Below are positions 2,268 to 51,985 of a stretch of DNA of 64,000 nt, in pieces. Position 1 is the stretch's first letter. Each line of letters starts with the position of its first letter. The DNA comes from Candidatus Saccharimonadota bacterium. Lineage in GTDB: Bacteria > Patescibacteriota > Saccharimonadia > CAILAD01 > BJGX01. The DNA is taken from contig BJGX01000002.1 of assembly GCA_014191035.1 (NCBI GenBank), positions 18,813 through 82,812 of the forward strand, read 5' to 3'. The position numbers were made by a program, and so were the translations under genes. The notes beneath the pieces are model-generated. The model saw only the letters and a list, made by a program, of their open reading frames with translations. It was not told the DNA's origin and did not search any database.

Positions 2268-2935
2268 ATAATGACAATCTTAGTGGCTTTATCTCAACAC
2301 AGCAGAAGGTCAACACAGACCTGTTTGCTGCACGAGACGAGGCACGAGCTCGTATCAAGCAGATCACTTACCAGATCGATGAGCTGAAGCGTGTCGGCCG
2401 GGGTACGTCCCTTGCCAACAAGCGTGCAGCTCAGCTGGAGCGCAAGCTTCAGAAGATCGAGAGTGACTTCTCGGAGTACGGTGCAAGCAAGGCCGTGCTC
2501 AGCGAGCTTGCGAGGCTAGATACCTCGACCAAGAACCTCTATCTGGAGGTGGCTGGTCATGGTGATCGAATTCGTGCGTTGGAGCAGTCCGACGCTATGA
2601 AGATCGATTTCCAGAATTCCGGTGTTGAGGTCGCTCACACGACCGATGCAAAGTTCGACACCCCCTGGGTAGAGGCTTTCATCGTTGGTGCAGTGGCTTT
2701 CCTCCTGACCGCATTCGCGCTGAATGCGTGGATCGCTCAGGACTGGAACTTCAACAAGGACTTCTGGGCTAGCATCATCGTTGGCGCTGCGGCGTTCTTC
2801 GTGATGGCAAGCTTCGAGAAGCTTCGACTCGGTCTGCAAATTCAGGCCCGCCACGTGTGGGTCATGAAGGAGCAGCCCGCTGAGAACCAGCAGCCCTCTA
2901 CGGCTACTACTCAGCAGGATCGGGTCGACGCCTAA
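2268..2935 (+). CDS. GC-rich hypothetical membrane protein: N-terminal coiled-coil plus two C-terminal TM helices, with a Q-rich tail.
   Basis: GGGAGG SD 6 nt upstream of the ATG at 2268 (the ORF track starts at 2228). About 57% GC versus about 37% genome background. Hydrophobic segments AFIVGAVAFLLTAFALNAWI and IIVGAAAFFVMASF. Confidence 0.55.
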
Positions 2936-3105
2936 GTCGTTTAAAAGGGGCATGTCAACCTCATAAAAAACTGACCGTAATTCTCAGGGGAAGTTCCTGG
3001 GGGCTGTTGATCGATAAGCCGTCACTATCGATTGGGTACACATGTGCTAGCCCGCAATCGCGAAATAGCACACCTTATCCCAACCTGGGAGAGGAGGTGA
3101 GCTGA

Positions 3106-4086
3106 ATGGCTCACGTCAACGGAAAGCGCTTGGCAGGGGGTCTCTGTACCCTACTGCTTTTGTTCCTGCTCGTGGGTGGCATCAAGCAGGTGGTTTCCGA
3201 GCCACCGGCCGATGCAAATCCGCTTCCTCCCAAGGTTGCGGATTGCCCTGGGCCCGTTCACTACTTCCGGCATGACCTGCCGGTTGAGGTGAACCATTTC
3301 GGTCCAGCAGTTGGCGATGGCAACATCGACCTCGTTTTGGAGCAGCTCCACTACCGGCGCTGTGTGGATCCGGCACTGACGGTGGCTCACCGTCAGTACC
3401 AGGCCCGGAACTACACCAGCCCGGAAGAGAGGCTCTTTCAGACGGAAGGCTTGCAGGACAATCCCGAAGCGTGGGCACTGAATGTGCTTGCTCTGGAGGA
3501 GCGTGAAGCAACCGCCGTCAAGGTCGAAATTGTCGAAATGACGGAGTCTTACCAGACTCTTTACATGGTCGACACGCCTGTGCCGACCATCTATCAGGAT
3601 GTTGTTGACAGGCCGCAGTACAAGGTGATTCGCTTCACCTATGCTGACGGCTCAGTTGACAACCTCAAGCTCGACTGTGGCTTTCAGCCTGTCGAGCCTG
3701 TGTTTCCTGGTATTCCTGGACCCCCGGTGCCTGGTGGAAGCGTGACGCCTTCGGGCGACACACCAACACCAACGCCTGGCCCTGGTCCTCGGCCCAACCC
3801 GCCGACCACCTGTGACCCTCGGGTCTGCAAGGGGCCGGCACCGGCCACCCCACCGCCCTGTATCGACAACGCAGGAGTGCGTTGTACGGTGCAGCCAGGG
3901 GCTGGTGGTGAACCCGGTAAGGGGGGAGCCATTAACAGGGGCAGCGACGGGTACTCTCCGGAGGATCCGCCGCCCCCGACCTGGGTGGCACCGGCGCCAA
4001 CGCCGACGTCTGTGGTCACCGTGCCACCGACGACGGCATCGCCACCACCAAGCCAGAACCTTAACCCGGGAATGATTCCGGGCTAA
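3106..4086 (+). CDS. GC-rich secreted protein with signal peptide, conserved cysteines and a Pro/Thr-rich C-terminal half.
   Basis: GAGGAGG SD upstream of the ATG. N-terminal hydrophobic signal (LCTLLLLFLLVGG). Long PTPTPGPGPRPNPP...PPPPTWVAPAPTPT low-complexity region. High GC. Confidence 0.55.
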   Translation: MAHVNGKRLAGGLCTLLLLFLLVGGIKQVVSEPPADANPLPPKVADCPGPVHYFRHDLPVEVNHFGPAVGDGNIDLVLEQLHYRRCVDPALTVAHRQYQARNYTSPEERLFQTEGLQDNPEAWALNVLALEEREATAVKVEIVEMTESYQTLYMVDTPVPTIYQDVVDRPQYKVIRFTYADGSVDNLKLDCGFQPVEPVFPGIPGPPVPGGSVTPSGDTPTPTPGPGPRPNPPTTCDPRVCKGPAPATPPPCIDNAGVRCTVQPGAGGEPGKGGAINRGSDGYSPEDPPPPTWVAPAPTPTSVVTVPPTTASPPPSQNLNPGMIPG

Positions 4087-4223
4087 GGTGAGGCTATTAC
4101 CTCGCTTGGCCTGGGGGAGTAAAATCCCCCGGGCACAAGCCCAAACTTCAAACTTGAACCTAGTAAGTAATTGCTTATTGAGTTCAGGGTTGCAGCCCTG
4201 CTAAAAGCTAATGCTTAAAAGTA

Positions 4224-4345: not shown

Positions 4346-5698
4346 ATGAAACTTAAATCTTTTGCCAAATTGGGTGTATTTGTCGCTGCTCTAGCTGCTG
4401 TGATAATTATTCCAATAACTGCGATTGCCGGATACGAACCAGCTAATAGGCCTACTAAGACCTATACTGGCCCAGAATCTGAAGCATTCCAATACCCAGT
4501 ATTTAACTCTTGGGTAAACACACCATATTATGGTGACGAACGTGCGTTTTTTGACGCCGCAACACAAACAAACGGACAGTATCAAGACAAGCTTGCTGTA
4601 ACTCCTGGACAAGAAGTAACCCTTAGAATGTATATTCATAACGGTGCTGCTCCAGGCCTAAATGGCACAAACTTTGATGGTCCAGGCGTTGCTAGAAATA
4701 CTCGTTTACAGGTATTCTTACCAACTGCCACTTCAACTCAACTTAGAAGTTTTGGTTATATCGTTGCCGATAACACCAATCCTGGTTGGGTAGCTGACTC
4801 AATTGACTTTAACTCTTCTGTGCCAGTAAGCATGGAATTTGTTAAAGGATCAGCTCGTTTGGCTAACCGTGCAAACCCTAACGGTGTTGCACTTCCAGAC
4901 ACAATTGTAAATAACGACACACAATTCAATGTTAATCGTCCTGGTGCCCCTGTGGGTTACCAAAACATGGACGGTAACTTCCCTGGATGTTTCGAGTATG
5001 ATGCATTTGTAACCTTGAAAGTTAAAATCAATGGACCTGCTTTGAGCGTACAGAAAAAGGTAACCACTCCTGGTTCTACAAACTGGCAGGAAAACCTTGA
5101 TGTTAACATGAACGATTCTAATTCAACTCCAACTACTAGTTGGTTGATCGAATACAAGAACACCGGTACTGCTACTGCTACTAATGCTGTAATTAGAGAC
5201 AGTTTGCCAGCAAATCTTAAGCTAGTTCCTGGATCGGTAACATTCTTTGACGGTAACAACCCTAATGGTAGTCCGGTTGCTGACGATGGATTGTTCAAGG
5301 GTGGAGTAGGTTTAGGTAATGTATTGCCAGGTTCAAACGGATTTTTCCGCTTTAGAACTACTGTTGCAACACCATTTACACCTCAAGAATGTGGCGTGAA
5401 GCCTTTGGTAAACACTGCCGAAGCTGAAGCCACTGGAGTAGCTAAGGTTAATGACACCGCTAGCGTAACTACTAAAAAGGACGCTAACTGTGCCACTCCT
5501 CCAGCTCCTCCAACTCCTCCAGCCCCAACTCCATCTGTTGTTCCTTCTACCCCTGTGAGCGCTACTTTGCCTCAAACAGGTGTTGAAGCTGGACTATTAG
5601 GAGTAATTGGTTCAAGTGCGATGGCTATTGGTGCAATTAAGTACCGACAGAGTAAAAAGGCTGTAGCCGAAACTCTTAAGAAAAAGTCAAACCGCTAA
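4346..5698 (+). CDS. Cell-wall-anchored surface protein with LPXTG sortase signal (LPQTG, hydrophobic span, KKK tail).
   Basis: N-terminal signal peptide. C-terminal PAPPTPPAPTP linker, then LPQTG, then GVEAGLLGVIGSSAMAIGAI and a basic tail. GGAG SD. Confidence 0.8.
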   Translation: MKLKSFAKLGVFVAALAAVIIIPITAIAGYEPANRPTKTYTGPESEAFQYPVFNSWVNTPYYGDERAFFDAATQTNGQYQDKLAVTPGQEVTLRMYIHNGAAPGLNGTNFDGPGVARNTRLQVFLPTATSTQLRSFGYIVADNTNPGWVADSIDFNSSVPVSMEFVKGSARLANRANPNGVALPDTIVNNDTQFNVNRPGAPVGYQNMDGNFPGCFEYDAFVTLKVKINGPALSVQKKVTTPGSTNWQENLDVNMNDSNSTPTTSWLIEYKNTGTATATNAVIRDSLPANLKLVPGSVTFFDGNNPNGSPVADDGLFKGGVGLGNVLPGSNGFFRFRTTVATPFTPQECGVKPLVNTAEAEATGVAKVNDTASVTTKKDANCATPPAPPTPPAPTPSVVPSTPVSATLPQTGVEAGLLGVIGSSAMAIGAIKYRQSKKAVAETLKKKSNR

Positions 5699-5719
5699 TA
5701 TAAATAAAATTAAGAATTA

Positions 5720-5745
5720 GACCCCATACGGGGTCTTTTTCTTTT
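5720..5745 (+). terminator. Rho-independent terminator: GACCCCATACGGGGTC followed by a T-run.
   Basis: Perfect 6-bp GC stem followed by TTTTTCTTTT. Confidence 0.7.
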
Positions 5746-5774
5746 ATAGGAAAATAAGTTATATAATAGACATT

Positions 5775-40428: not shown

Positions 40429-40833
40429 GTGGGGGAATTCTACGAAGTTCACGAAGCTATCCGCTACATTTACCCAGAACAAGCAGTTCCTATCAAGCAA
40501 ATGGTGTCGGCAGTTACAAAAGACCCAACAAAAGTTAGACCCATTTTTGGGGCCATTGGTTTCGATTTTATACGGCTAGTTTACTTTGAGATTGATGATG
40601 GAGAGTTGCTTAGGCACATTGTCGCAGAGCCCGAAACATATTATTGGGGCGATGAAATTAGCCTCGAAGAAGCACTACTTATGAATGGCCTCGAGGAAAT
40701 AGACGAAGTAACTAACTCTGACCGGTTTGTTTATACCAGCTGGGGAGCATTTATTCCGCTTAAGTCTAATGAACTAGTTTTGCCTTACCCAGAACTGCCA
40801 GAATTACCGGCTGATATGAGGCTGGATTTATAG
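40429..40833 (+). CDS. Hypothetical protein, paralogue A of a duplicated family (see 41156..41566).
   Basis: GTG start with an AAGGAG SD. Shares colinear motifs with paralogue B (E-HxxIRYIY ... VPIK ... GAxGFDFI ... YF-F--G-LRHI ... EAETYYWG-E-S-EE ... SWG-IIPLK). Confidence 0.55.
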   Translation: MGEFYEVHEAIRYIYPEQAVPIKQMVSAVTKDPTKVRPIFGAIGFDFIRLVYFEIDDGELLRHIVAEPETYYWGDEISLEEALLMNGLEEIDEVTNSDRFVYTSWGAFIPLKSNELVLPYPELPELPADMRLDL

Positions 40834-41155: not shown

Positions 41156-41566
41156 ATGGCTAACGAGCCAGAAATCTTCCGCACTGAACTTGAGGTTCAT
41201 AAGTGTGTGAGGTATATTTACCTCGATACAGTTGTGCCAATTAAGGATTTTTCAGATCGGAAGAGTGATAACCCGGCCGATGTTGAGCCAGTCAATGGAG
41301 CCGTCGGCTTTGATTTCATCAGCGTTATCTACTTCGACTTCGAGGGTCGCACCTTGCGACATATTCTTGGAGAAGCAGAAACGTATTACTGGGGTCAAGA
41401 GCTCTCTCGTGAGGAGCTCGAAACCATGCCCGACATGGGTGGGGTTCTCCGCAGGACCGAGTCCCAAAGGTTTCTCTTGAGCTCGTGGGGAGGAATCATT
41501 CCACTCAAGGCTCACGAGTTTGCCATCGCCCCTAATTTTAGCGAAGCGCTAAGAGATTTTAGCTGA
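41156..41566 (+). CDS. Hypothetical protein, paralogue B of the 40429..40833 family. Its DNA is GC-richer than that of paralogue A.
   Basis: AAGGAG SD 5 nt upstream of the ATG at 41156. The ORF track's longer 40973 start lies upstream of the SD. Colinear similarity to paralogue A. Confidence 0.55.
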   Translation: MANEPEIFRTELEVHKCVRYIYLDTVVPIKDFSDRKSDNPADVEPVNGAVGFDFISVIYFDFEGRTLRHILGEAETYYWGQELSREELETMPDMGGVLRRTESQRFLLSSWGGIIPLKAHEFAIAPNFSEALRDFS

Positions 41567-41672: not shown

Positions 41673-42053
41673 ATGCATATAAAAGATCTCGAATCAAAAG
41701 CTATGGAAAACACAACCTTTAGAACGGTACTTGCAACATCAAAACATACACAAGTAGTAGTCATGGATGTTAAGCCAGGAGAAGACATTGGTAAAGAAAT
41801 TCATCCTAATGAAGATCAGGTATTGTATCTTATTTCAGGCAGGGGAACGATCTATATGGACGGCAAGGAAATGGATTTTAATAAAGGCGATTGTGTTTTA
41901 GTTCCAGCTGGCACCGAGCACAACTTTACTACTATTGGTGACGAGTCTATGAAAATTATTACAACCTATAGTCCTCCTCATCATCCAGATGGTACCGTTC
42001 ATAAAACTAAGGTTGATGCTGAAGCTGCCGAATTAGAGCACGATGCACACTAA
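41673..42053 (+). CDS. Cupin-domain protein.
   Basis: Cupin motifs G(X)5HxH-like (GKEIHPNEDQVLYLISGRG) and a second motif (GDCVLVPAGTEHNF). AGGAGA SD. Confidence 0.7.
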   Translation: MHIKDLESKAMENTTFRTVLATSKHTQVVVMDVKPGEDIGKEIHPNEDQVLYLISGRGTIYMDGKEMDFNKGDCVLVPAGTEHNFTTIGDESMKIITTYSPPHHPDGTVHKTKVDAEAAELEHDAH

Positions 42054-43123
42054 GTCTGGCCTACTTTGCTCATCATTGATATTTTTCTGACAAACATCAA
42101 GAGCCATCCAAAAGTAATTATAAAGCCAATAAGCTCGAAGGCAGTTAGGCTAAAGTATCCTACAAAAGCAAATAATACATAACAAAAAGCAATTAGGGCT
42201 AAGGTTAAGTATGAGTTGGTTAGAAATGTTTTATCTATTTTGGGAAATATGAATCTTAAGCTCAGCACTATAACCCCAAAAATTATCAGCATAGAGTAGC
42301 CCAAAATATCATGAACCAAAGGCGCTCTGTCGTAGGGGAATAAACCCAAGCTGGCCATGTCTATCCCTAGTATTATAAAAAGTAAGCTTAGGATATTTAA
42401 ATTAACATCCTTCTTATTAAAAATATGTTTAGAGCGCTTTAAGTCATTAGTGAATTGAGTGCTCAGGGCTATAACCAAAAGGCCAGCCATAACAATGGTC
42501 ATATTAAAGCTTATTGAGGATATTCCATTACCCCAGCCCAGATAAGAGAAGTTAACCTGCCACCAATTAGGATTGCTATTTGTAAGCATAGACAAAATTA
42601 TTCCAGACACCATTACTATCGAAAAGAGCCTCGCAACTATAGCCGTGTTCATACCTTTAGCAAGTGGAATTAGTAGGTATATCAAGACACCAGAATAAAT
42701 CCCAACAAAGGCAGAGGACACAAAGGCATCTAAAGAAAGGTTCTTAAATGAATTATTAAGAACCGAAATTATTAAAAAGCTCACCATAGCTACTGTGATT
42801 GCTACAGCTACAGTCAATACAATGCAGTTATAAACTAGAACTCCGACTTTAAGTTTGATACCACGTTCTTTGAGCCCCATTAGGTAGAAAGGGGTAAAGG
42901 TGAACAAGCAGATTGCTGCTGCTGAAATAAGCATCATAAGACCAATCGAAACATCTCCAGATAGAGTGATTGCAGGCTTGCTCCTAAAAACAATGAAGCT
43001 AATTATAGTAAAAACAACAATGCTGGGAATTAGTAAAATCTCACCAGGATTTTGCGAGGCTTTAAATGACTTTTTAATTGAATGAAGCATATTATTTCTT
43101 TCTTTTGCTTTTTTGCTTTTCAA
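42050..43123 (-). CDS. Hypothetical polytopic membrane protein with about 10 TM helices.
   Basis: ORF with many hydrophobic helices. Family not recognised. Confidence 0.45.
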   Translation of the reverse strand: MKSKKAKERNNMLHSIKKSFKASQNPGEILLIPSIVVFTIISFIVFRSKPAITLSGDVSIGLMMLISAAAICLFTFTPFYLMGLKERGIKLKVGVLVYNCIVLTVAVAITVAMVSFLIISVLNNSFKNLSLDAFVSSAFVGIYSGVLIYLLIPLAKGMNTAIVARLFSIVMVSGIILSMLTNSNPNWWQVNFSYLGWGNGISSISFNMTIVMAGLLVIALSTQFTNDLKRSKHIFNKKDVNLNILSLLFIILGIDMASLGLFPYDRAPLVHDILGYSMLIIFGVIVLSLRFIFPKIDKTFLTNSYLTLALIAFCYVLFAFVGYFSLTAFELIGFIITFGWLLMFVRKISMMSKVGQT

Positions 43124-43415
43124 TTCTTCTTTGGGCTGCTGTACGAACTATTATATTCAATGATGCAGCAATTATTCCAACTCCGATTAGTACATAAAAA
43201 ATTGTAAATATTTTTGTAATATCGTTTGTTGGGTGGATATCGCCATATCCTACGGTAGTAATTGTGATAACCGAAAAGTACAAGGCATCGAGCCACTTTA
43301 ATGGCATGAAATAATGGTAAAAAATAGTTCCAGTCCCTATTACAGACAATGCAGTAAGTACAACCCATTTAAACTTAAGAGCTTCTGATTCTGATTTTCG
43401 ACTTTTCTTGTTCAT
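43092..43415 (-). CDS. Minimal 2-TM potassium channel (KcsA/Kch-like pore domain).
   Basis: K+ selectivity filter TTVGYGD flanked by two TM helices. Basic C-terminal tail. Confidence 0.8.
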   Translation of the reverse strand: MNKKSRKSESEALKFKWVVLTALSVIGTGTIFYHYFMPLKWLDALYFSVITITTVGYGDIHPTNDITKIFTIFYVLIGVGIIAASLNIIVRTAAQRRIEKQKSKRKK

Positions 43416-43486
43416 TTATTGTAATTTATACAGTATTTTTAATCTTTAAGCTAGCTTATAGAGCTTATGTAATATATTATACCACT

Positions 43487-43882
43487 ATGGAATATGGTTC
43501 TTGGTATTCGAGACAAAAAAAGCCCTCCTGGGCGCCACCAGAAATTGCCTTTGGCCAAGTATGGAGCATTTTGTATCCTATAATATTTGCTGTCAATATT
43601 TATGTTTTCTATCTTTTAAGCAAGGGTCAAATAAGCTGGCGGGTAGCATTGCCATTCTGGCTTAATTTGTTTTTTAATTTTGCTTTTTCACCACTTCAAT
43701 TTGTGCTGAGATCGCAGATTTTATCATCTATTGATATCGTTCTAGTCTTAATAACTACCATATGGTGCATTATTGCCATTTGGCCATATAGCAAATTAGC
43801 CTCTATTGCTTTCGTTCCGTATTTGATATGGGTTACGATTGCTTCAGTTTTACAAATTTCAATAACTGTACTTAATAGATAG
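43487..43882 (+). CDS. tspO: TspO/MBR-family (tryptophan-rich sensory protein) membrane protein, short form.
   Basis: Family N-terminal signature: KKPSWAPP, then 6 residues, FGQVWSILY, then W-rich helices. Confidence 0.7.
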   Translation: MEYGSWYSRQKKPSWAPPEIAFGQVWSILYPIIFAVNIYVFYLLSKGQISWRVALPFWLNLFFNFAFSPLQFVLRSQILSSIDIVLVLITTIWCIIAIWPYSKLASIAFVPYLIWVTIASVLQISITVLNR

Positions 43883-43938
43883 TTTATAGTTGTTATGCTA
43901 AAATTATAATTATTATTTAATGGGAACTAATTAAAGTT

Positions 43939-44712
43939 ATGCAAGCAAAAACCATACAAGGTAAAAAACTTCAGAAATTAAACCTCATTATGGGTTTAAT
44001 TCATCTTGCGCAGGCAGGCATACTGTTTGTTATTCTTAACTATTCATTTAAGATACCAATCCTAACTAGGTTTTTTGATACCACCCCTGGCGGTGGATTT
44101 ACGGTAATTACTGAGCGACTTTGGGATGTGCCAATTGCAGTTATAGCGCCTATTTTCTTACTTATAGCGGCATTCTTCCACCTTTTAATTGCATCACCGC
44201 TATATATTCGTCGCTACGAACAAAACATTAAAAATGGAATTAACCCAATACGCTGGTGGGAATACTCAATTAGCTCCTCTTTGATGCTAGTCGGTTTAAT
44301 GATGATGGCCGGACTCACCGAGCTTCCAAGTGTTGTGTTTGTCTTTACCCTTAACTGGATAATGAACATGATGGGCTTAATGATGGAGCGCTATAACCAG
44401 CTGACCGATAAAACAAAATGGTTCCCGTATAACATTGGGGTGGTTGCGGGCTTGGTTCCTTGGATAATTGGATTTATATACTTCTGGGTAAATACCAATA
44501 ACATTTCCGAATCTATTCCTTCTTGGGCCAAGATCGGCTTTATTATTACTTTCCTATTCTTTAATACCTTTGCTGTTAATATGTTCTTGCAGTATAAAAA
44601 GGTCGGGAAGTGGAAAAATTACGTTTATGGAGAGCGTGGTTACATTTGGCTAAGTTTGATTGCCAAGTCTGTACTAGCCTGGATAATCGTCTTGGGAACA
44701 CTAAATCAGTAG
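43939..44712 (+). CDS. Heliorhodopsin (7-TM retinal protein with inverted topology).
   Basis: Colinear match to the prototype heliorhodopsin 48C12 as recalled. TM1: GLIHLAQAGILFV. TM3: FHLLIASP..RRYE...NPIRWWEYSISSSLM, including the counter-ion Glu. TM5: GLVPWIIGFIYF. TM6: FLFFNTFAVNMFLQYKKVGKWKNY. TM7: GERGYIWLSLIAKSVLAW, with the Schiff-base Lys. Confidence 0.85.
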   Translation: MQAKTIQGKKLQKLNLIMGLIHLAQAGILFVILNYSFKIPILTRFFDTTPGGGFTVITERLWDVPIAVIAPIFLLIAAFFHLLIASPLYIRRYEQNIKNGINPIRWWEYSISSSLMLVGLMMMAGLTELPSVVFVFTLNWIMNMMGLMMERYNQLTDKTKWFPYNIGVVAGLVPWIIGFIYFWVNTNNISESIPSWAKIGFIITFLFFNTFAVNMFLQYKKVGKWKNYVYGERGYIWLSLIAKSVLAWIIVLGTLNQ

Positions 44713-44718
44713 GGGCTT

Positions 44719-45387
44719 ATGGGTACATCAGCTAATCTAGTTCAGGCAATCTTCATAACCCTCAATATTGTTGGCTTTGGATATTTAGCCTATAAATTCA
44801 TTTCTAGTAAAAGCTCAACAGCCAAAATATTTGGTTACGGAATGGCTCTTCTAGCTTTTGTAGAATTTTGTGTGCTGGGTGTAAATATGTTGTGGACTAT
44901 ACCTGTTTTAGATTTTAAATCCTTGCAGTATCTTTTCTATCTGTATGCAATACTAGTCTTATTTGCTACGTCTGCGGCCTCTCTTAAGCCAAGAACAAGG
45001 TACTACATTAATATATTTTTAGCTTTTGCAGCCATTTTAGTTTCTGGCCTATTCTTTTTAGAAAGGACTTTGAACAACGCAACAGCATACACAATAAATT
45101 ATTATCTGTCCTTTGATAATCCTGCTACCCTAAATATTTTCAGCCTGACTGTGGCATTGTCGCTTGGTATGGCAGCTCTGGTGGTAGCACAATATTTTAA
45201 AGATCGAAGCCTTAAATTGGCTTTAGAATTGGGCTATTTGATAGTAACTATATCTTTGGTAATTAGTCTGATTGTATTTAACGACACTATAAGATTAATC
45301 AGCAGTATTGCTCAGCTCGGTTCTCTTCTGGCCATGTCGTTATACATCTATAAAAACCCAGCAGAATTCCAAAAACTCAAAAGATAA
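44719..45387 (+). CDS. Uncharacterised 7-TM membrane protein, 5 nt downstream of the heliorhodopsin gene.
   Basis: Seven hydrophobic helices predicted by eye. No Lys in the last helix and no type-1 rhodopsin motifs. The ATG start follows the HeR stop almost immediately. Confidence 0.5.
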   Translation: MGTSANLVQAIFITLNIVGFGYLAYKFISSKSSTAKIFGYGMALLAFVEFCVLGVNMLWTIPVLDFKSLQYLFYLYAILVLFATSAASLKPRTRYYINIFLAFAAILVSGLFFLERTLNNATAYTINYYLSFDNPATLNIFSLTVALSLGMAALVVAQYFKDRSLKLALELGYLIVTISLVISLIVFNDTIRLISSIAQLGSLLAMSLYIYKNPAEFQKLKR

Positions 45388-45449: not shown

Positions 45450-45461
45450 TGTGAGCTCACA
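45450..45461. promoter_or_regulatory. Perfect 12-bp palindrome TGTGAGCTCACA, lac-operator-like (AATTGTGAGC|TCACAGAAT), overlapping the GTG start codon.
   Basis: Exact dyad symmetry. Sits at about +22 to +33 relative to the putative transcription start. Confidence 0.3.
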
Positions 45462-46053
45462 GAATCTGAAGCTTGTGACGTACTTAAAAAATGAGCAGAA
45501 ATTGGCTGATAAGTATCTCGAAGATACTTCGGCTTTTTTGACCAATACTTATAACGTCAAATTCACGATGCGTGATCTGTTAGAGATTGCTTCATCACCT
45601 CATGAAATTGCAGCTCGACGACAGTTCAATTCCATCCTTGTTATGCGTGACGTCTATGTAGACTCCGCTGAAATTAACAAGCAAATCGAATTGATTGTAG
45701 GCTCATACAATAGCTATGCCACGCTAATGGGTTTTGCAAATTGCGTAGGTGATAAGATAGCTAAAATTGCCCACGATAGAGTACTAGCAGTTAAAGACGT
45801 ATGGCCAAAGGACGCTTTCGGCTCGCTTATGAGTTCGCTTCAAGTTTACTCGACTTCAAATATTGAATTCAGACAGAGTGTCAGAGCTGAAGCAAGTAAT
45901 AAGCTAAATTTTACCAATTCTCTAGGGGCATACATAACACTCACGCCAGCAGAGCGAATCTTGTCTAATGTGTCGGTCAGCCCGGTAGAAGAGCTTTGCT
46001 CCTGGATAGACCAAGCAGGTGTTACATTCGCCACTACTCTTTCTAGCAACTAA
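45451..46053 (+). CDS. Hypothetical protein. GTG start.
   Basis: ORF with a GGAGA SD 4 nt upstream. No motif recognised. Confidence 0.4.
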   Translation: MSSQNLKLVTYLKNEQKLADKYLEDTSAFLTNTYNVKFTMRDLLEIASSPHEIAARRQFNSILVMRDVYVDSAEINKQIELIVGSYNSYATLMGFANCVGDKIAKIAHDRVLAVKDVWPKDAFGSLMSSLQVYSTSNIEFRQSVRAEASNKLNFTNSLGAYITLTPAERILSNVSVSPVEELCSWIDQAGVTFATTLSSN

Positions 46054-46070: not shown

Positions 46071-46093
46071 GCCCGCCATTTAGGCGGGTTTTT
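46071..46093 (+). terminator. Rho-independent terminator: GCCCGCC-attt-AGGCGGG followed by TTTTT.
   Basis: 7-bp stem (6 G:C, 1 A:T) followed by a T-run. Confidence 0.7.
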
Positions 46094-46132
46094 ACTATTA
46101 AAAAATTATTATTTGAGTTATGCTTATTAGAT

Positions 46133-46786
46133 ATGGGGCCAAAAAAAATTCCAGGAAGTTACGATCATGAAATCAACAAAAGCTATATGTGGAGATGGTT
46201 GTTTGTCATTATAATATTGGTAGTTGCTGTCAGCCTGGGAGCCTTTATTTTATTAAGGCCAAAACAGCAAAGCACCAAAACCGGACAAGATTTAAATAAC
46301 AGCATTAGCTCTTATGAAAATCGTTATGTCGGTAAAAAGATAGAATATAATTTGGCCAACATACAAAACGACTGGAACAAGATCAGTGGTGAGGGCGGTT
46401 CTAACTACAAATTAGATGAGTCGTCTTGCACATCAAGTTTGCTTTCTTCAGATAATGTAAAAAGCTTAATTAATTCTGGTTCTACTCTAGCAAGTGCAAT
46501 CAACAAACAGCTTGAAGAAACAAAAGATTCATCACCTGATAAAACCATCATTATAGGTAATACCTACAGTGCTAATCTATCTTCCAACAAAGGAGATCTG
46601 GAGTTCATGATAAAAGATGCTGATTATAAGGCCGCAGATGGCACGTCTCACAAAATAAAAATTTATGGTCAGTGGATCGGCGACTACCAGCTTTTTATTA
46701 GGCAAGAGTGCACAGTAGGTGATTTCAATAATTCAAAAGAAAAGCTCGAATCATTTATTGATAGATTGGCGATAATAGTAAACTAG
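46133..46786 (+). CDS. Membrane-anchored or secreted hypothetical protein.
   Basis: The ATG at 46133 follows the terminator. The ORF track's longer 46019 start would read through that terminator. N-terminal TM helix (WLFVIIILVVAVSLGAFILL). Confidence 0.5.
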   Translation: MGPKKIPGSYDHEINKSYMWRWLFVIIILVVAVSLGAFILLRPKQQSTKTGQDLNNSISSYENRYVGKKIEYNLANIQNDWNKISGEGGSNYKLDESSCTSSLLSSDNVKSLINSGSTLASAINKQLEETKDSSPDKTIIIGNTYSANLSSNKGDLEFMIKDADYKAADGTSHKIKIYGQWIGDYQLFIRQECTVGDFNNSKEKLESFIDRLAIIVN

Positions 46787-47202
46787 TTTAGTTTGCCCAG
46801 CCGATACTCTGATAGTAAAGCGTCTGCATTTGAAGAGTGCCTACCTTCGCCGCCCTTATTATTATAGGCAGAGGTGGCATCCTTTCCGCAGTAAGTCAGA
46901 ATTAAGTCAGCGCCACCTGGGTGTTCATCGAGATAGCTTGTAACATCATAAACATTGCCCCTAATTGCTACCCAGCAATCACTAGATTTATTATGTTTAG
47001 ATAGTTCGGTAGTTGATATTGTCTTTTCATCAATTGCTACTTCTTCTTCAGCTGGCTGTTGCTGTGTGTTTTGATCTACTTTTTCGTCTATTTTTTCTTC
47101 CACAGCATTTTCCTTATTCTGGCTATCGATAAATCCCCAAACAAACATTCCGCTCATAAGCACAGCAACAATAATCAAAACAACTGCAACAACCTTTTTC
47201 AT
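46783..47202 (-). CDS. Membrane-anchored cytochrome b5-like haem-binding domain protein.
   Basis: N-terminal TM helix. b5 fold signature (HNKSSDCWVAIRGNVYDVTSYLDEHPGGADLIL...GKDATSAY). Confidence 0.75.
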   Translation of the reverse strand: MKKVVAVVLIIVAVLMSGMFVWGFIDSQNKENAVEEKIDEKVDQNTQQQPAEEEVAIDEKTISTTELSKHNKSSDCWVAIRGNVYDVTSYLDEHPGGADLILTYCGKDATSAYNNKGGEGRHSSNADALLSEYRLGKLN

Positions 47203-48512
47203 GACAAGTTAAACTCCTCGGTATTTATATTCTTATTTTTTACTCTCTTTTGCTTAAGCTGTCTTTTGATAGCCTTCATCATGGCCGATGGTCCACAAAT
47301 CATAAAGTTTGCATCCTCTAAGTTTTTGCTCTTTTCAAAGATTATATCGGCGCTTAAAAAACCATCTTTGTCTTCGAAATAAGTTATCAGATTAAAATTA
47401 CTCTTCTGCTTATCTAACGCTTCAAGCTCGGCCAGGTAAAAAGCATCTTGCTTGGTTTTTAAGGCATAATATAAATCAATTTGCTGAGTTTCGTCTGCAG
47501 ATTTAGCCATTGACATAAATGGAGTTACACCTATACCGCCAGCTATCCAAATCTGCCTACTATTTTTTACAACCTTGTTAGAAAATGTACCGTATGGACC
47601 ATCTATCTTAAAGGTTGTGCCTTTTTCAGCACCCTCTAGGGCAGCTGTAAAATCACCCAGCGCCTTTATACCAAACTTTAGTTTACTTTCGTCTGGTGAA
47701 GAACTCATCGAGAAAGGATGGGATTCACCTAAAAGGCCTTTGCTGTCTTGTTTTATAAAAGCATACTGGCCCGGCACAAAATTTAATTTATCGCCGATTG
47801 GACTTAAAACAATTTCATAAATACTTCCTGATTTACGAATGTCGTCGAGTTTATATTCATAGAATTTAGCAAAATTGCCGTGGAATATTGAACGATATAC
47901 GTAAACTATTAAAGCCATCGCTATTAACACGGCAAAGTATATTTGTAAGCTCAAAATCCCATTACCTCTAAAGCCTAGGTTACTACCGCCGACAAAGACA
48001 GCATGAATCGCACCTACAAACAGTATCAAACCAAGTAGCCGCTGAGCCAAAATGAAAAACTTATAAGAAACCTTGATATACAAGGTGACTATAATTGCCA
48101 GTACCATTCCAAATAAGGCAATGCTTCCCAGGGCCCTGAATGGCGATAACAGGTTGGGTTTTAAAAATTCAAAGGCCGAATTAGGAGAAATTAAAAAATA
48201 TCGAATAGTTAAAAATAGGGGGTGCAACAATAGCAGTATAAAAGCTATCGATCCGATGTTGTGATGCGCTCGGTAGGTGTTATCTAGGCCATGAAACATT
48301 CTATTATATATTTTGAATCTGGCACTGAGTATTACGGCCCAGGCAAAAAGAGCCATACCAGCAAGACCCGCTAGCTTACCTAGACTCTGGAATATGTTTT
48401 GGGCGCCATCCCAATCTAGCGGCATCGCAATTAGCCACAGAATCACGGGGGTAAGAGCAATGATAACCGTAAGATATCCGCCCGGATTAAAGTATTTTCT
48501 TCGACTATTCAT
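47199..48512 (-). CDS. NOX/FRE-family flavocytochrome: ferric-reductase 6-TM domain plus FAD- and NAD(P)H-binding domains.
   Basis: TM His pair spaced 14 residues (AHHNIG...LLLHP). FAD motif HPFSMSS. NAD(P)H motif AGGIGVTPF. C-terminal CGP motif. Overlaps the b5 gene by 4 nt. Confidence 0.8.
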   Translation of the reverse strand: MNSRRKYFNPGGYLTVIIALTPVILWLIAMPLDWDGAQNIFQSLGKLAGLAGMALFAWAVILSARFKIYNRMFHGLDNTYRAHHNIGSIAFILLLLHPLFLTIRYFLISPNSAFEFLKPNLLSPFRALGSIALFGMVLAIIVTLYIKVSYKFFILAQRLLGLILFVGAIHAVFVGGSNLGFRGNGILSLQIYFAVLIAMALIVYVYRSIFHGNFAKFYEYKLDDIRKSGSIYEIVLSPIGDKLNFVPGQYAFIKQDSKGLLGESHPFSMSSSPDESKLKFGIKALGDFTAALEGAEKGTTFKIDGPYGTFSNKVVKNSRQIWIAGGIGVTPFMSMAKSADETQQIDLYYALKTKQDAFYLAELEALDKQKSNFNLITYFEDKDGFLSADIIFEKSKNLEDANFMICGPSAMMKAIKRQLKQKRVKNKNINTEEFNLS

Positions 48513-49876: not shown

Positions 49877-50725
49877 ATGAAGCTTAGGAAACCAGTAAAT
49901 ATTATTCGTGGCAGAGAGGGGACCGATGGTGCCGGCGTAAAGCTGATCCGTTTGTTTTCGCACGATAACACAAATGATTTTGACCCCTTTTTAATGATGG
50001 ATGCATTCGACAGTGTCGATCCAGAAGATTACAATAAGGGCTTTCCATGGCATCCCCACAGGGGTATTGAAACTATAACCTACTTAATTGATGGTGCCAT
50101 AGAACACCAAGACAGCCTTGGAAATTTCGGTGCCATTAATGCTGGTGATGCGCAGTGGATGACGGCAGGGTCAGGCATTATTCATAATGAAATGCCAGTT
50201 GAGTCCAAGAGAATGCGCGGATTTCAGTTGTGGCTGAATCTACCCAAACAACACAAAATGACCAGCCCATCTTATAATGAGATTAAAGAACATAGCATTC
50301 CAGTAGTTAAAGAGGGCAAAAACACTATTAGGATTATTTCAGGCAACTACGGTAATAAAATGGGTGCGTTTGATCCAAAATATGTAAATCCATTATTTTT
50401 GGATATATCGCTTTCAAAAAATTCCAAATTTGAGCTGTCCACACCAAGCTCAGACACATTGTTTGTATATATTTTAGAAGGGGACGTTTCATTTTCCGAT
50501 TCAGAAGATGCTATAGCACATAAAAATGTTGTATTTTTTGGCAAAGGAGACACGCTTAGGGCAAATTCTGTAACTACAAATGCAAGGATTTTGCTTTTTT
50601 CCGCTAAACCAATAAAAGAGCCGGTTGCTTGGGCTGGACCAATAGTTATGAACACAGAAGCTGAACTAGAACTAGCTTTTTCACAGCTAAGGCGCGGAAC
50701 TTTTGTTCAAGATAATCATAAATAA
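49877..50725 (+). CDS. Pirin-family protein (bicupin).
   Basis: HPHRGIETITY motif and the second-cupin GSGIIHNE region. Confidence 0.85.
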   Translation: MKLRKPVNIIRGREGTDGAGVKLIRLFSHDNTNDFDPFLMMDAFDSVDPEDYNKGFPWHPHRGIETITYLIDGAIEHQDSLGNFGAINAGDAQWMTAGSGIIHNEMPVESKRMRGFQLWLNLPKQHKMTSPSYNEIKEHSIPVVKEGKNTIRIISGNYGNKMGAFDPKYVNPLFLDISLSKNSKFELSTPSSDTLFVYILEGDVSFSDSEDAIAHKNVVFFGKGDTLRANSVTTNARILLFSAKPIKEPVAWAGPIVMNTEAELELAFSQLRRGTFVQDNHK

Positions 50726-50757: not shown

Positions 50758-51333
50758 ATGAAAAAAGAAATAGAATCTCTAAGAAAGGAGGTGAATAGGC
50801 TAAAAAAGCTAGCCTATCGTGATCACCTTACAGGCCTTCTAAACCGAAGAGGTTTTGAAGATTCTATTAATTTGGCCATAGATCAATACAATAGCAGTGA
50901 TAAAAAATTAACCCCACGCAGGGGTTTTATTGTTAATAGCGTAAGTTTAATCGTTATCGATATTGATAGGTTCAAAAAATTAAATGATAAATACGGCCAT
51001 CCTGAGGGAGATAAAATATTAAAACATCTTTCAAAGCACATTACTAGCCAAGTTCGATCAAATGATCTTGTTGGGCGCTGGGGTGGAGAAGAATTGGTTG
51101 TGGGCCTAATTGGAGCCGACTTAGAATCTGCTTATGAATTGGCTGAAAATGCAAGAATTGAACTAAAAAAATCAGGCTTTGAGCCGGTTTATACTTTTAG
51201 CGCCGGCGTTGCTGGTGTAAATAATCAAATCAATACCTTTCAAAAGCTTTATGAGTGTGCCGACGAGGCTCTTTACAAAGCCAAAACGTCTGGCCGAGAC
51301 AGGGTTGAAAAGTGTAAAATTAAAAGTAATTAA
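50758..51333 (+). CDS. GGDEF-domain diguanylate cyclase (GGEEL variant) with N-terminal coiled-coil.
   Basis: DHLTGLLNRRGF, IDIDRFKKLND and the RWGGEELVV active site. Confidence 0.8.
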   Translation: MKKEIESLRKEVNRLKKLAYRDHLTGLLNRRGFEDSINLAIDQYNSSDKKLTPRRGFIVNSVSLIVIDIDRFKKLNDKYGHPEGDKILKHLSKHITSQVRSNDLVGRWGGEELVVGLIGADLESAYELAENARIELKKSGFEPVYTFSAGVAGVNNQINTFQKLYECADEALYKAKTSGRDRVEKCKIKSN

Positions 51334-51346
51334 TTAGAGGGTAGAA

Positions 51347-51985
51347 ATGAAAGAACAAGTATCAAAGTTGAAGCTAGAGAGATATTCTAAAAATCGCGTT
51401 GAAAACTTAAGTGATGGAGTCTTTGGCTTCGCCATGACATTATTAGTGCTTAATATTGTAATCCCTGAAAGCAGTATAATTTCCAGCAATTCTCAGCTAT
51501 GGCAAGCAATTTCGGGCCAAGGAAGAGCTTTTCTGAGTTTTGCTATTGCGTTTTTTATACTGGCTTCTATGTGGAGCCTGCATGTCAGGCAATTTGAAAA
51601 CCTTCAAGAAATTGATAGGCGATTTGTATTTATAAATTCAATTAGGCTTTTTATGGCAATTCTTATTGCATTTAGTACTGGCATTGCTAGCAGTTACGAA
51701 AAGCTCGAGCTGGCTAGGATGATATTACCAATTAATCTTTTGTTGCTTGCGATTATCGGCACAATACAATGGCATTATGCTGCTTATAGTAAGCCACCTC
51801 TTTTAGAAGGAATTACCAGTGAAGAAAAAAACATGCACAAAATCAGAGCAATCATATTTATTATATTCTCACTATTCACCGTTGTGGCTTCATATTTTGT
51901 CGGAGAAATAGCTTTTGCCATATTTATACTTATGCCAATTATAGTAAGGTTAACTGGCGTTAAAAAGACAAAGTCCTCGGTTTAG
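51347..51985 (+). CDS. DUF1211 / TMEM175-like membrane protein (putative K+ channel family).
   Basis: Signature RVENLSDGVFGFAMTLLVLNI (family consensus RxxxFSDGVFAIAxTLLV). Confidence 0.65.
   Translation: MKEQVSKLKLERYSKNRVENLSDGVFGFAMTLLVLNIVIPESSIISSNSQLWQAISGQGRAFLSFAIAFFILASMWSLHVRQFENLQEIDRRFVFINSIRLFMAILIAFSTGIASSYEKLELARMILPINLLLLAIIGTIQWHYAAYSKPPLLEGITSEEKNMHKIRAIIFIIFSLFTVVASYFVGEIAFAIFILMPIIVRLTGVKKTKSSV

Follow-up and report, generated by a model that had tools for sequence, protein, structure and literature searches.

A heliorhodopsin of freshwater Candidatus Saccharimonadia with an orphan seven-transmembrane protein as candidate lineage-specific accessory partner

The heliorhodopsin gene and its transcription signals

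The 64-kb stretch of DNA analysed here (the window, taken as a whole) comes from a freshwater Candidatus Saccharimonadia, has a guanine-cytosine (GC) content of about 40%, and carries a gene for a heliorhodopsin (HeR) that is directly followed on the same strand by a gene for an orphan protein with seven transmembrane (TM) helices, referred to below as the 7-TM protein. HeR, of 257 amino acids (aa), is encoded at 43939..44712 (+) and the 7-TM protein, of 222 aa, at 44719..45387 (+). The gene order on the upstream side of HeR is cupin (+), a 346-aa membrane protein (-), a K+ channel (-) and a TspO homologue (+); from HeR (+) on, the 7-TM gene (+) is followed by genes for a 200-aa (+) and a 217-aa (+) protein, a cytochrome b5-domain protein (Cyt-b5, -) and a ferric reductase (-). 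The open reading frames (ORFs) of the K+ channel, TspO, HeR and the 7-TM protein were all found at the coordinates that the first-pass annotation of this DNA had assigned to them, and the divergent spacer between the K+ channel and TspO, which it had put at about 70 nucleotides (nt), measures 71 nt. The spacer between HeR and the 7-TM gene had been given as 5 nt and has to be corrected to 6 nt (gggctt, 44713-44718).

The HeR is a canonical member of its family. It matches Pfam PF18761 with 274.8 bits against a cutoff of 26.7 (E = 7.4e-82) and, over its full length, the NCBIfam equivalog NF038020 with 289.9 bits against a cutoff of 100. In an alignment of 17 HeRs (A3), residues E108, H22 and H81 are invariant, and E108 is presumably the equivalent of the TM3 Glu counterion of 48C12. 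The motif S239-L-I-A-K243 in TM7 is likewise invariant across the 17 sequences and represents the SxxxK pattern that serves as the criterion for the Schiff-base lysine of HeRs (PMC9166423). The N-terminal segment MQAKTIQGKKLQK contains five Lys, which by the positive-inside rule alone is compatible with an N-in orientation, and the dN/dS of HeR against its closest relative is 0.010. HeRs of freshwater Saccharimonadia are already known, with 80 occurrences reported (PMC9166423). As a side observation, HeRs that are 62-64% identical across apparently different phyla may reflect transfer between a host and its episymbiont.

An extended -10-like element, TATGCTAAAAT (43894..43904, +), sits in the spacer between TspO and HeR, 35 nt upstream of the HeR start. 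Its exact pattern has only two occurrences in the window, and the element is kept 5' of HeR in the related loci L001, L006, L009, L010, L024, L025 and L028. Since a generic sigma-70 scan was uninformative (22 sites versus 25 expected), the promoter call rests on this conservation across loci, by which TATGCTAAAAT is likely the HeR promoter. At the far end, a GC-rich stem-loop with a T-run (CCCGCC-ATTTA-GGCGGG, 46072..46096, +) begins 19 nt past the stop of the gene for the 200-aa protein (45451..46053, +), a soluble, fast-evolving protein (36-94% identity) of no family whose gene comes after the 7-TM gene in some members of the clade. This hairpin likely marks the end of a unit of HeR, the 7-TM gene and the 200-aa gene, and we infer that the three genes would be transcribed together and apart from TspO.

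The 7-TM protein and its linkage to heliorhodopsin

The 7-TM ORF can be regarded as a real gene because its dN/dS against the L001 orthologue is 0.044 (dS about 1.6) and homologues occur in independent assemblies. The family is small: a word-indexed search with the protein returned 6 clusters, no more than 13 of 1.84 billion representatives matched in an exhaustive HMMER profile search, and GTDB species genomes scanned with the 7-TM profile yielded two metagenome-assembled genomes from Lake Mendota, both labelled Candidatus Saccharimonadia. No second copy was found within the window. None of 14 members matched Pfam at a meaningful E-value, the protein has no NCBIfam match, and its profile has no match among PDB sequences.

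The first-pass annotation held that the protein has neither a retinal Lys nor type-1 motifs and is not a second rhodopsin, which our data bear out. The predicted TM7 (helix 189-212) has no interior Lys, none of the 14 members matched Bac_rhodopsin or Heliorhodopsin at E <= 1, and an hhalign comparison with the HeR profile gave a probability of 0.1%, so that a degenerate HeR or rhodopsin paralogue was rejected. An AlphaFold2 model built on the 14-sequence alignment, with a mean local confidence (pLDDT) of 84 and a predicted template modelling score (pTM) of 0.81, has seven TM helices and a short helix at 121-129. Foldseek aligned it with folds of G-protein-coupled receptors (GPCRs) at TM-scores of 0.4-0.56 and 7-13% identity, and its matches to rhodopsin structures were weak (TM-scores 0.39-0.50). 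The structural check that had been proposed for the protein thus returned a generic GPCR-like bundle and not a known transporter fold. Lys and Arg are concentrated in loops 1-2, 3-4 and 5-6 and at the C-terminus, from which an N-out/C-in topology, opposite to that of HeR, is predicted. Conservation in the HeR-linked subfamily is centred on the extracellular segment 121-139 (Y124, Y128, S131, F132 and N139); G39 and A152 are conserved as well, and there are few conserved polar residues overall.

Known families of polytopic membrane proteins were weighed and set aside. Brp/Blh beta-carotene dioxygenases have conserved iron-binding histidines in their TM helices; the 7-TM protein has no Pfam match and no invariant His in alignments A1 and A2 or in the 11-sequence subfamily alignment, and no conserved catalysis-like His, Asp or Glu was seen in the 7-TM alignments. 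The family 7TMR-DISM_7TM (PF07695) reached a best E-value of 0.33, in 2 of the 14 members and with no extra domain; this similarity is not significant, and the fused signalling domain usual in these bacterial receptors is absent from the 7-TM protein. An Htr-type transducer, which would have two TM helices with HAMP and MCP signalling domains, was dismissed too, the protein having 222 aa, seven helices and not a single Pfam domain.

Wherever the context is readable, genes of the HeR-linked 7-TM subfamily come right after HeR in the same orientation, with a gap of 1-11 nt, which upholds the tight coupling proposed at the outset; fragments as well as P0008 and P0010 were left out of this count. 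The pair was seen in the window, L001-L005, L007, L006, L009/L022, L010/L011, L016, L017-L019, L024 and L029, spanning about nine distinct lineages, and the narrow gap leaves no room for a promoter-like spacer. Across these loci HeR is 72-98% identical and the 7-TM protein down to 23-43%, dS is saturated (1.2-1.9) already against the closest relative, and the flanking genes turn over, TspO being absent in L006, L010 and L024 and the genes for the 200-, 217- and 346-aa proteins in L017/L029. The preservation of the HeR/7-TM junction through saturated synonymous divergence is our main argument for a functional tie between the two genes. We propose, at roughly even chances, that the 7-TM protein serves HeR as an accessory membrane subunit, co-translated with it and dependent on it, which is specific to one Saccharimonadia lineage and would be dispensable for HeR itself.

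Several observations, given in this and the next two paragraphs, weigh against such a partnership. All support for it is genomic and comes from about nine independent pairs. The entire neighbourhood (cupin, K+ channel, HeR, Cyt-b5 and ferric reductase) is syntenic across the same loci, and the adjacency of HeR and the 7-TM gene may therefore partly reflect vertical inheritance within the lineage. The 7-TM protein evolves at 3-5 times the pace of HeR (dN 0.07 versus 0.013, and 0.81 versus 0.215), which is unusual for the tight partner of a protein with a dN/dS of 0.01. In a metagenome scan with the HeR profile, which gave 80 loci with HeRs 60-100% identical, the 7-TM gene was present only where HeR was at least 72% identical (L021, L022, L024 and L029). 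It was not found in the approximately 60 loci with downstream room and HeRs of 60-71% identity, in which HeR mostly precedes a convergent unrelated gene. The outgroup HeR loci have GC contents of 39% to 58%, and some of them appear to be actinobacterial; since GC content did not discriminate between Saccharimonadia and actinobacterial HeR loci, we describe the outgroup as taxonomically mixed.

HeRs without the 7-TM gene also occur close by. In a neighbour-joining tree of HeRs, taking as reference the smallest clade that holds all 7-TM-bearing HeRs, those of L025, L028 and L032/L033 are nested in this clade and lack the gene. In L025, the K+ channel, HeR, Cyt-b5 and ferric reductase are present without the 7-TM gene and TspO, L028 has only TspO and HeR of the cluster, and in L032/L033 HeR stands in an unrelated context; L026 is nested too, but its contig stops 31 nt past HeR and it was not counted as lacking the gene. 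In none of 100 bootstraps did the 7-TM-bearing HeRs group to the exclusion of all others, and a tblastn search of the nested loci without the gene revealed no 7-TM remnants. That nested HeRs lack the gene without a remnant indicates that HeR works without the 7-TM protein. Judged from these sequences, HeR would have lost the 7-TM gene, or moved away from it, several times, and the reverse was never observed. The HeR of L032/L033 (around 4983-5771; 70% identity), found alone beside genes for very large proteins of about 900-1100 aa, may have relocated by itself.

Distant paralogues of the 7-TM protein (P0014, P0016 and P0017; 17-25% identity in full-length alignments, whole-library E-values of 1e-5 to 1e-6) are not adjacent to HeR. 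In L013 (444-4533) the 7-TM gene is preceded by a polyprenyl synthase gene (-) and followed by genes for a PlsC-type acyltransferase, UbiA (-) and a CDP-alcohol phosphatidyltransferase; in L020 (3-3442) it stands between an AT3-SGNH acyltransferase (-) and UbiA, and in L012 (38-991) the next gene encodes a small membrane protein that has a KTWRG motif but matches no Pfam family. The location of paralogues beside or near lipid and prenyl genes indicates an ancestral role independent of HeR, and these contexts suggest a lipid- or isoprenoid-related ancestry of the family. A 79-aa ORF of L001 (13212-13451), which is similar to the C-terminal third of proteins from the distant 7-TM branch with lipid context (hidden Markov model E-value 2e-19), is probably a fragment of a second 7-TM paralogue; at the corresponding position the window has a 240-aa gene of no family.

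The company of UbiA, polyprenyl synthase, PlsC, CDP-alcohol phosphatidyltransferase and AT3-SGNH acyltransferase genes raises the idea that the 7-TM protein handles isoprenoids, lipids or retinal, either by helping a retinal-auxotrophic episymbiont to capture, hold or deliver host retinal, or by shaping the annular lipid of HeR. The conserved aromatic-rich segment of the protein faces outside, and Saccharibacteria are without blh and must import retinal (PMC9296517). We nevertheless find this role quite improbable, as the protein shows no conserved catalysis-like residues and no detectable similarity to Blh or any lipid enzyme, sister HeRs do without its gene, and, according to the statement in PMC9296517 that cites the TaHeR structure, the HeR apoprotein takes up external retinal fast and unaided.

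The synteny of the block (cupin, K+ channel, HeR, Cyt-b5 and ferric reductase), the repeated loss of the 7-TM gene while HeR stays and the HeR-independent paralogues could all be accommodated if the gene were a neutral hitch-hiker, i.e., an unrelated, fast-evolving 7-TM gene kept in the HeR unit by inherited synteny; it is, moreover, the fastest-diverging gene of the cluster among those retained at long range. We consider this explanation doubtful, though it deserves to be taken seriously. Other genes of the block come and go, whereas the HeR/7-TM junction holds at 1-11 nt across saturated dS, the subfamily is found nowhere else in the 1.84 billion representatives apart from fragments and unread contexts, and the 7-TM gene is under clear purifying selection. 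In terms of the accessory subunit that we favour, a subfamily found only behind a HeR that yet persists without it is best described as an optional, lineage-specific add-on. The comparative expectation of the first-pass annotation, that the linkage would recur in relatives, thus holds within the lineage and across about nine lineages, but not for the nested and distant HeRs without the gene. It had also named conserved gene neighbours among the few handles on HeR function; the 7-TM gene, which belongs to a single narrow HeR lineage of Saccharimonadia and is missing even from HeRs nested in it, offers no general handle of this kind.

TspO, the K+ channel and the redox neighbours

TspO is a tetrapyrrole binder, and the homologue encoded upstream of HeR (43487..43882, +; 131 aa) is an abbreviated form of it. 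The protein matches PF03073 with 96 bits against a cutoff of 24 (E = 2.2e-27), the match beginning at profile position 21 of 145, and with 66 bits it does not reach the cutoff of 180 of the NCBIfam equivalog. Compared with the full-length TspO of L059 and with two reference TspO sequences (alignment A4), about 28 N-terminal residues corresponding to TM1 are missing, and the ORF has no in-frame upstream extension. The protein begins immediately ahead of the WY-x3-KP-x-W-x-P loop and has four helices, not five; it retains this motif in the loop before TM2 as well as the C-terminal PY-x2-W...LN motif. In contrast to RsTspO, BcTspO and mitochondrial TSPO, it is therefore devoid of TM1, the loss of which would open one wall of the canonical tetrapyrrole pocket. 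Such short TspOs form a large family with 346 matches at E <= 1e-10; the best 120 of these are mostly 128-134 aa long, with two of 145 aa, and one among those listed is labelled Candidatus Saccharibacteria. TM1-less TspOs are found by HeR in L017 (2397-2792), L028 (4541-4936), L029 (4080-4475) and L044 (720-1106). We found no literature description of a four-helix, TM1-less form, and this variant, seemingly widespread in Saccharimonadia, may interest structural biologists working on TspO.

The TspO gene lies directly 5' of HeR, at a distance of 28-56 nt, in the lineage of the window, in L017/L029 and in the different contexts of L028 and L044. Of the approximately 70 HeR loci outside the clade, just 2 show this arrangement, and in L059 the full-length TspO is located 1.4 kb from HeR on the opposite strand. 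In the reverse direction, none of three sampled short TspOs (61-65% identity, long contigs) had a HeR nearby, and HeR-adjacent TspOs are no closer to each other than to non-adjacent ones. The link between TspO and HeR put forward by the first-pass annotation is consequently weak, given that all three short relatives lie elsewhere, part of the clade (L006/L010/L024) is without TspO, and TspO is rare beside other HeRs; as a general HeR partner it was rejected. A connection of TspO with the two heme proteins encoded nearby would be just as plausible. On the 154-kb contig of L028, a gene for a photolyase-related DPRP (44-1495; PF04244, 5e-52) was noticed 3.5 kb 5' of the TspO-HeR pair.

The K+ channel (43092..43415, -) is, as first described, a minimal 2-TM protein of 107 aa with a TTVGYGD filter that is divergently transcribed, and no specific evidence of its coupling to HeR emerged. 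It matches Ion_trans_2 (PF07885) with 74 bits against a cutoff of 22.5 (E = 7.5e-21), its filter region reads ITITTVGYGDIHP, and it has no RCK or other gating domain. The gene for the 346-aa multi-pass membrane protein (42050..43090, -) starts 1 nt past the stop of the channel gene; this protein has no Pfam match and is 75-94% identical in L001, L006, L009 and L010, with a weak DUF998 match in the L010 orthologue. Downstream, the gene for the 217-aa single-pass membrane protein of no family (46133..46786, +) is followed by the genes for the membrane-anchored Cyt-b5 protein (46783..47202, -; PF00173, 1.1e-25), which is convergent with the HeR unit, and the ferric-reductase/NOX-like flavocytochrome (47199..48512, -; Ferric_reduct, FAD_binding_8 and NAD_binding_1 domains), which is 58-88% identical across the clade. 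The K+ channel is found 5' of HeR in all 7-TM loci with available upstream sequence, and Cyt-b5 in all those with available downstream sequence, and both are also present in L025. Because these genes are on the other strand or convergent, the co-occurrence of the K+ channel and the Cyt-b5/ferric reductase pair may be lineage synteny.

The composition of this neighbourhood would also suit a photo-oxidative or heme module in which HeR, TspO, Cyt-b5, the NOX-like reductase and the K+ channel act jointly and the 7-TM protein is one structural member. This is a rather unlikely arrangement in our view, although the K+ channel, HeR, Cyt-b5 and ferric reductase stay together in L025 even without the 7-TM gene and TspO, the TspO-HeR adjacency recurs in the unrelated contexts of L028 and L044, five other loci encode Cyt-b5-domain proteins at a distance of 0.6-3.5 kb from HeR, genes for pirin, cupin and GGDEF proteins are close by, and HeR has been tied to oxidative-stress genes in the literature (PMC8612252, PMC9166423). 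The genes concerned differ in strand or are driven by promoters of their own, TspO has been lost in part of the clade, is rarely placed directly 5' of other HeRs (2 of about 70 loci) and was far from any HeR in all three sampled cases, and the association could be plain lineage synteny.

The five loci with Cyt-b5-domain proteins, which are secreted, are L052, L055, L085, L092 and L097 (HeR 62-64% identical); these loci look actinobacterial, and their Cyt-b5 echoes the HeR cluster of Saccharimonadia. Just past the HeR cluster, the window encodes a pirin (49877-50725), a GGDEF-like protein (50758-51333) and a second K+ channel, of the TMEM175 type (51347-51985), which adds redox and signalling genes to the neighbourhood. 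On the other side, 5' of the cupin, two tandem paralogues of about 133 aa and no family (40429-40833 and 41168-41566) have the common motif ...YIYP...VPIK...GAIGFDF...ETYYWG... and orthologues in related loci (e.g., L009 4449-4850). Far from the cluster, an island of 56-64% GC (2400-4200) in this genome of about 40% GC may be foreign DNA. It is flanked by a SecA C-terminal fragment on one side and by the gene for a class-I peptide release factor (PCRF and RF-1 domains) on the other, and its ORFs at 2228-2935 and 3106-4086 (both +) have no Pfam match.

The 7-TM protein as a candidate heliorhodopsin partner

If the 7-TM protein is an accessory subunit of HeR, the following course of events could be envisaged. 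Transcription of HeR would start at a conserved extended -10 promoter of its own, and the 7-TM protein would be read from the HeR mRNA 6 nt further on, probably by translational coupling. Oriented opposite to HeR, it would associate laterally with it in the membrane, where it would receive the slow light-induced conformational change of HeR, or stabilise or tune HeR, the extracellular helix and loop 121-139 being the likely contact or ligand site. TspO, the K+ channel and the Cyt-b5/ferric reductase pair would be separately transcribed neighbours with a common light, redox and heme theme. The partner role suggested by the first-pass annotation hence survives, on genomic grounds, for a lineage-specific accessory candidate, but not for a general HeR transducer.

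HeRs with functionally linked operon neighbours have been described in three systems, in which HeR controls its partner by light: AbHeR binds and regulates a glutamine synthetase (PMC9529153), TfHeR a photolyase (PMC9769723), and OcHeR the ABC transporter OmrDE, an integral membrane partner (PMC11109279). Like these, the HeR of the window shares a same-strand unit with short spacers with its neighbour, here a candidate partner. The neighbour differs from the glutamine synthetase, photolyase and OmrDE cases in being an orphan 7-TM protein of no known activity that is encoded 3' of HeR. Furthermore, glutamine synthetase, photolyase and ABC transporters are widespread without HeR, whereas the HeR-linked 7-TM subfamily was found only beside HeR. 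Other reported HeR neighbours include glutaredoxin, GSHPx, glyoxalase, catalase and histidine kinases (PMC8612252). Neither the orphan 7-TM protein nor TspO is listed among the ten neighbour groups of PMC11109279 or the contexts of PMC8612252, and our literature search found no paper naming both heliorhodopsin and TspO. The theme of a HeR with an operon partner is thus already known, and an orphan 7-TM partner would be a variation on it.

In haloarchaea, HtrII is a dedicated membrane partner that is encoded beside the non-pumping sensory rhodopsin II, co-transcribed with it and dependent on it, and Htr proteins consist of two TM helices with HAMP and methyl-accepting signalling domains. By analogy, the 7-TM protein adjoins HeR and would depend on it. 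Unlike Htr, however, it has seven helices and no cytoplasmic output domain, and is for this reason without an obvious route to downstream signalling. We hold it unlikely that the 7-TM protein represents the first cognate transducer or co-receptor in the membrane that is dedicated to a HeR, i.e., the HeR counterpart of Htr, which in an episymbiont of the candidate phyla radiation (CPR) would couple light to a host or environmental cue via its extracellular segment, as a hetero-complex of two oppositely oriented 7-TM proteins.

The physiological role of HeR is largely open, and the few solved cases came via operon neighbours. The pairing described here is restricted to one lineage and dispensable, and the adjacency of TspO is occasional, so neither neighbour explains the function of HeR in general. 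Should HeR and the 7-TM protein not interact, the locus would be a warning that genes of streamlined genomes may stay closely spaced and in conserved order with no function behind it. The two nevertheless offer a compact and directly testable pair, a HeR and a 222-aa membrane protein, in CPR bacteria with almost no known signalling, and if the interaction proves true, the 7-TM protein would be the first HeR-specific partner of a HeR, as opposed to a housekeeping enzyme or transporter.

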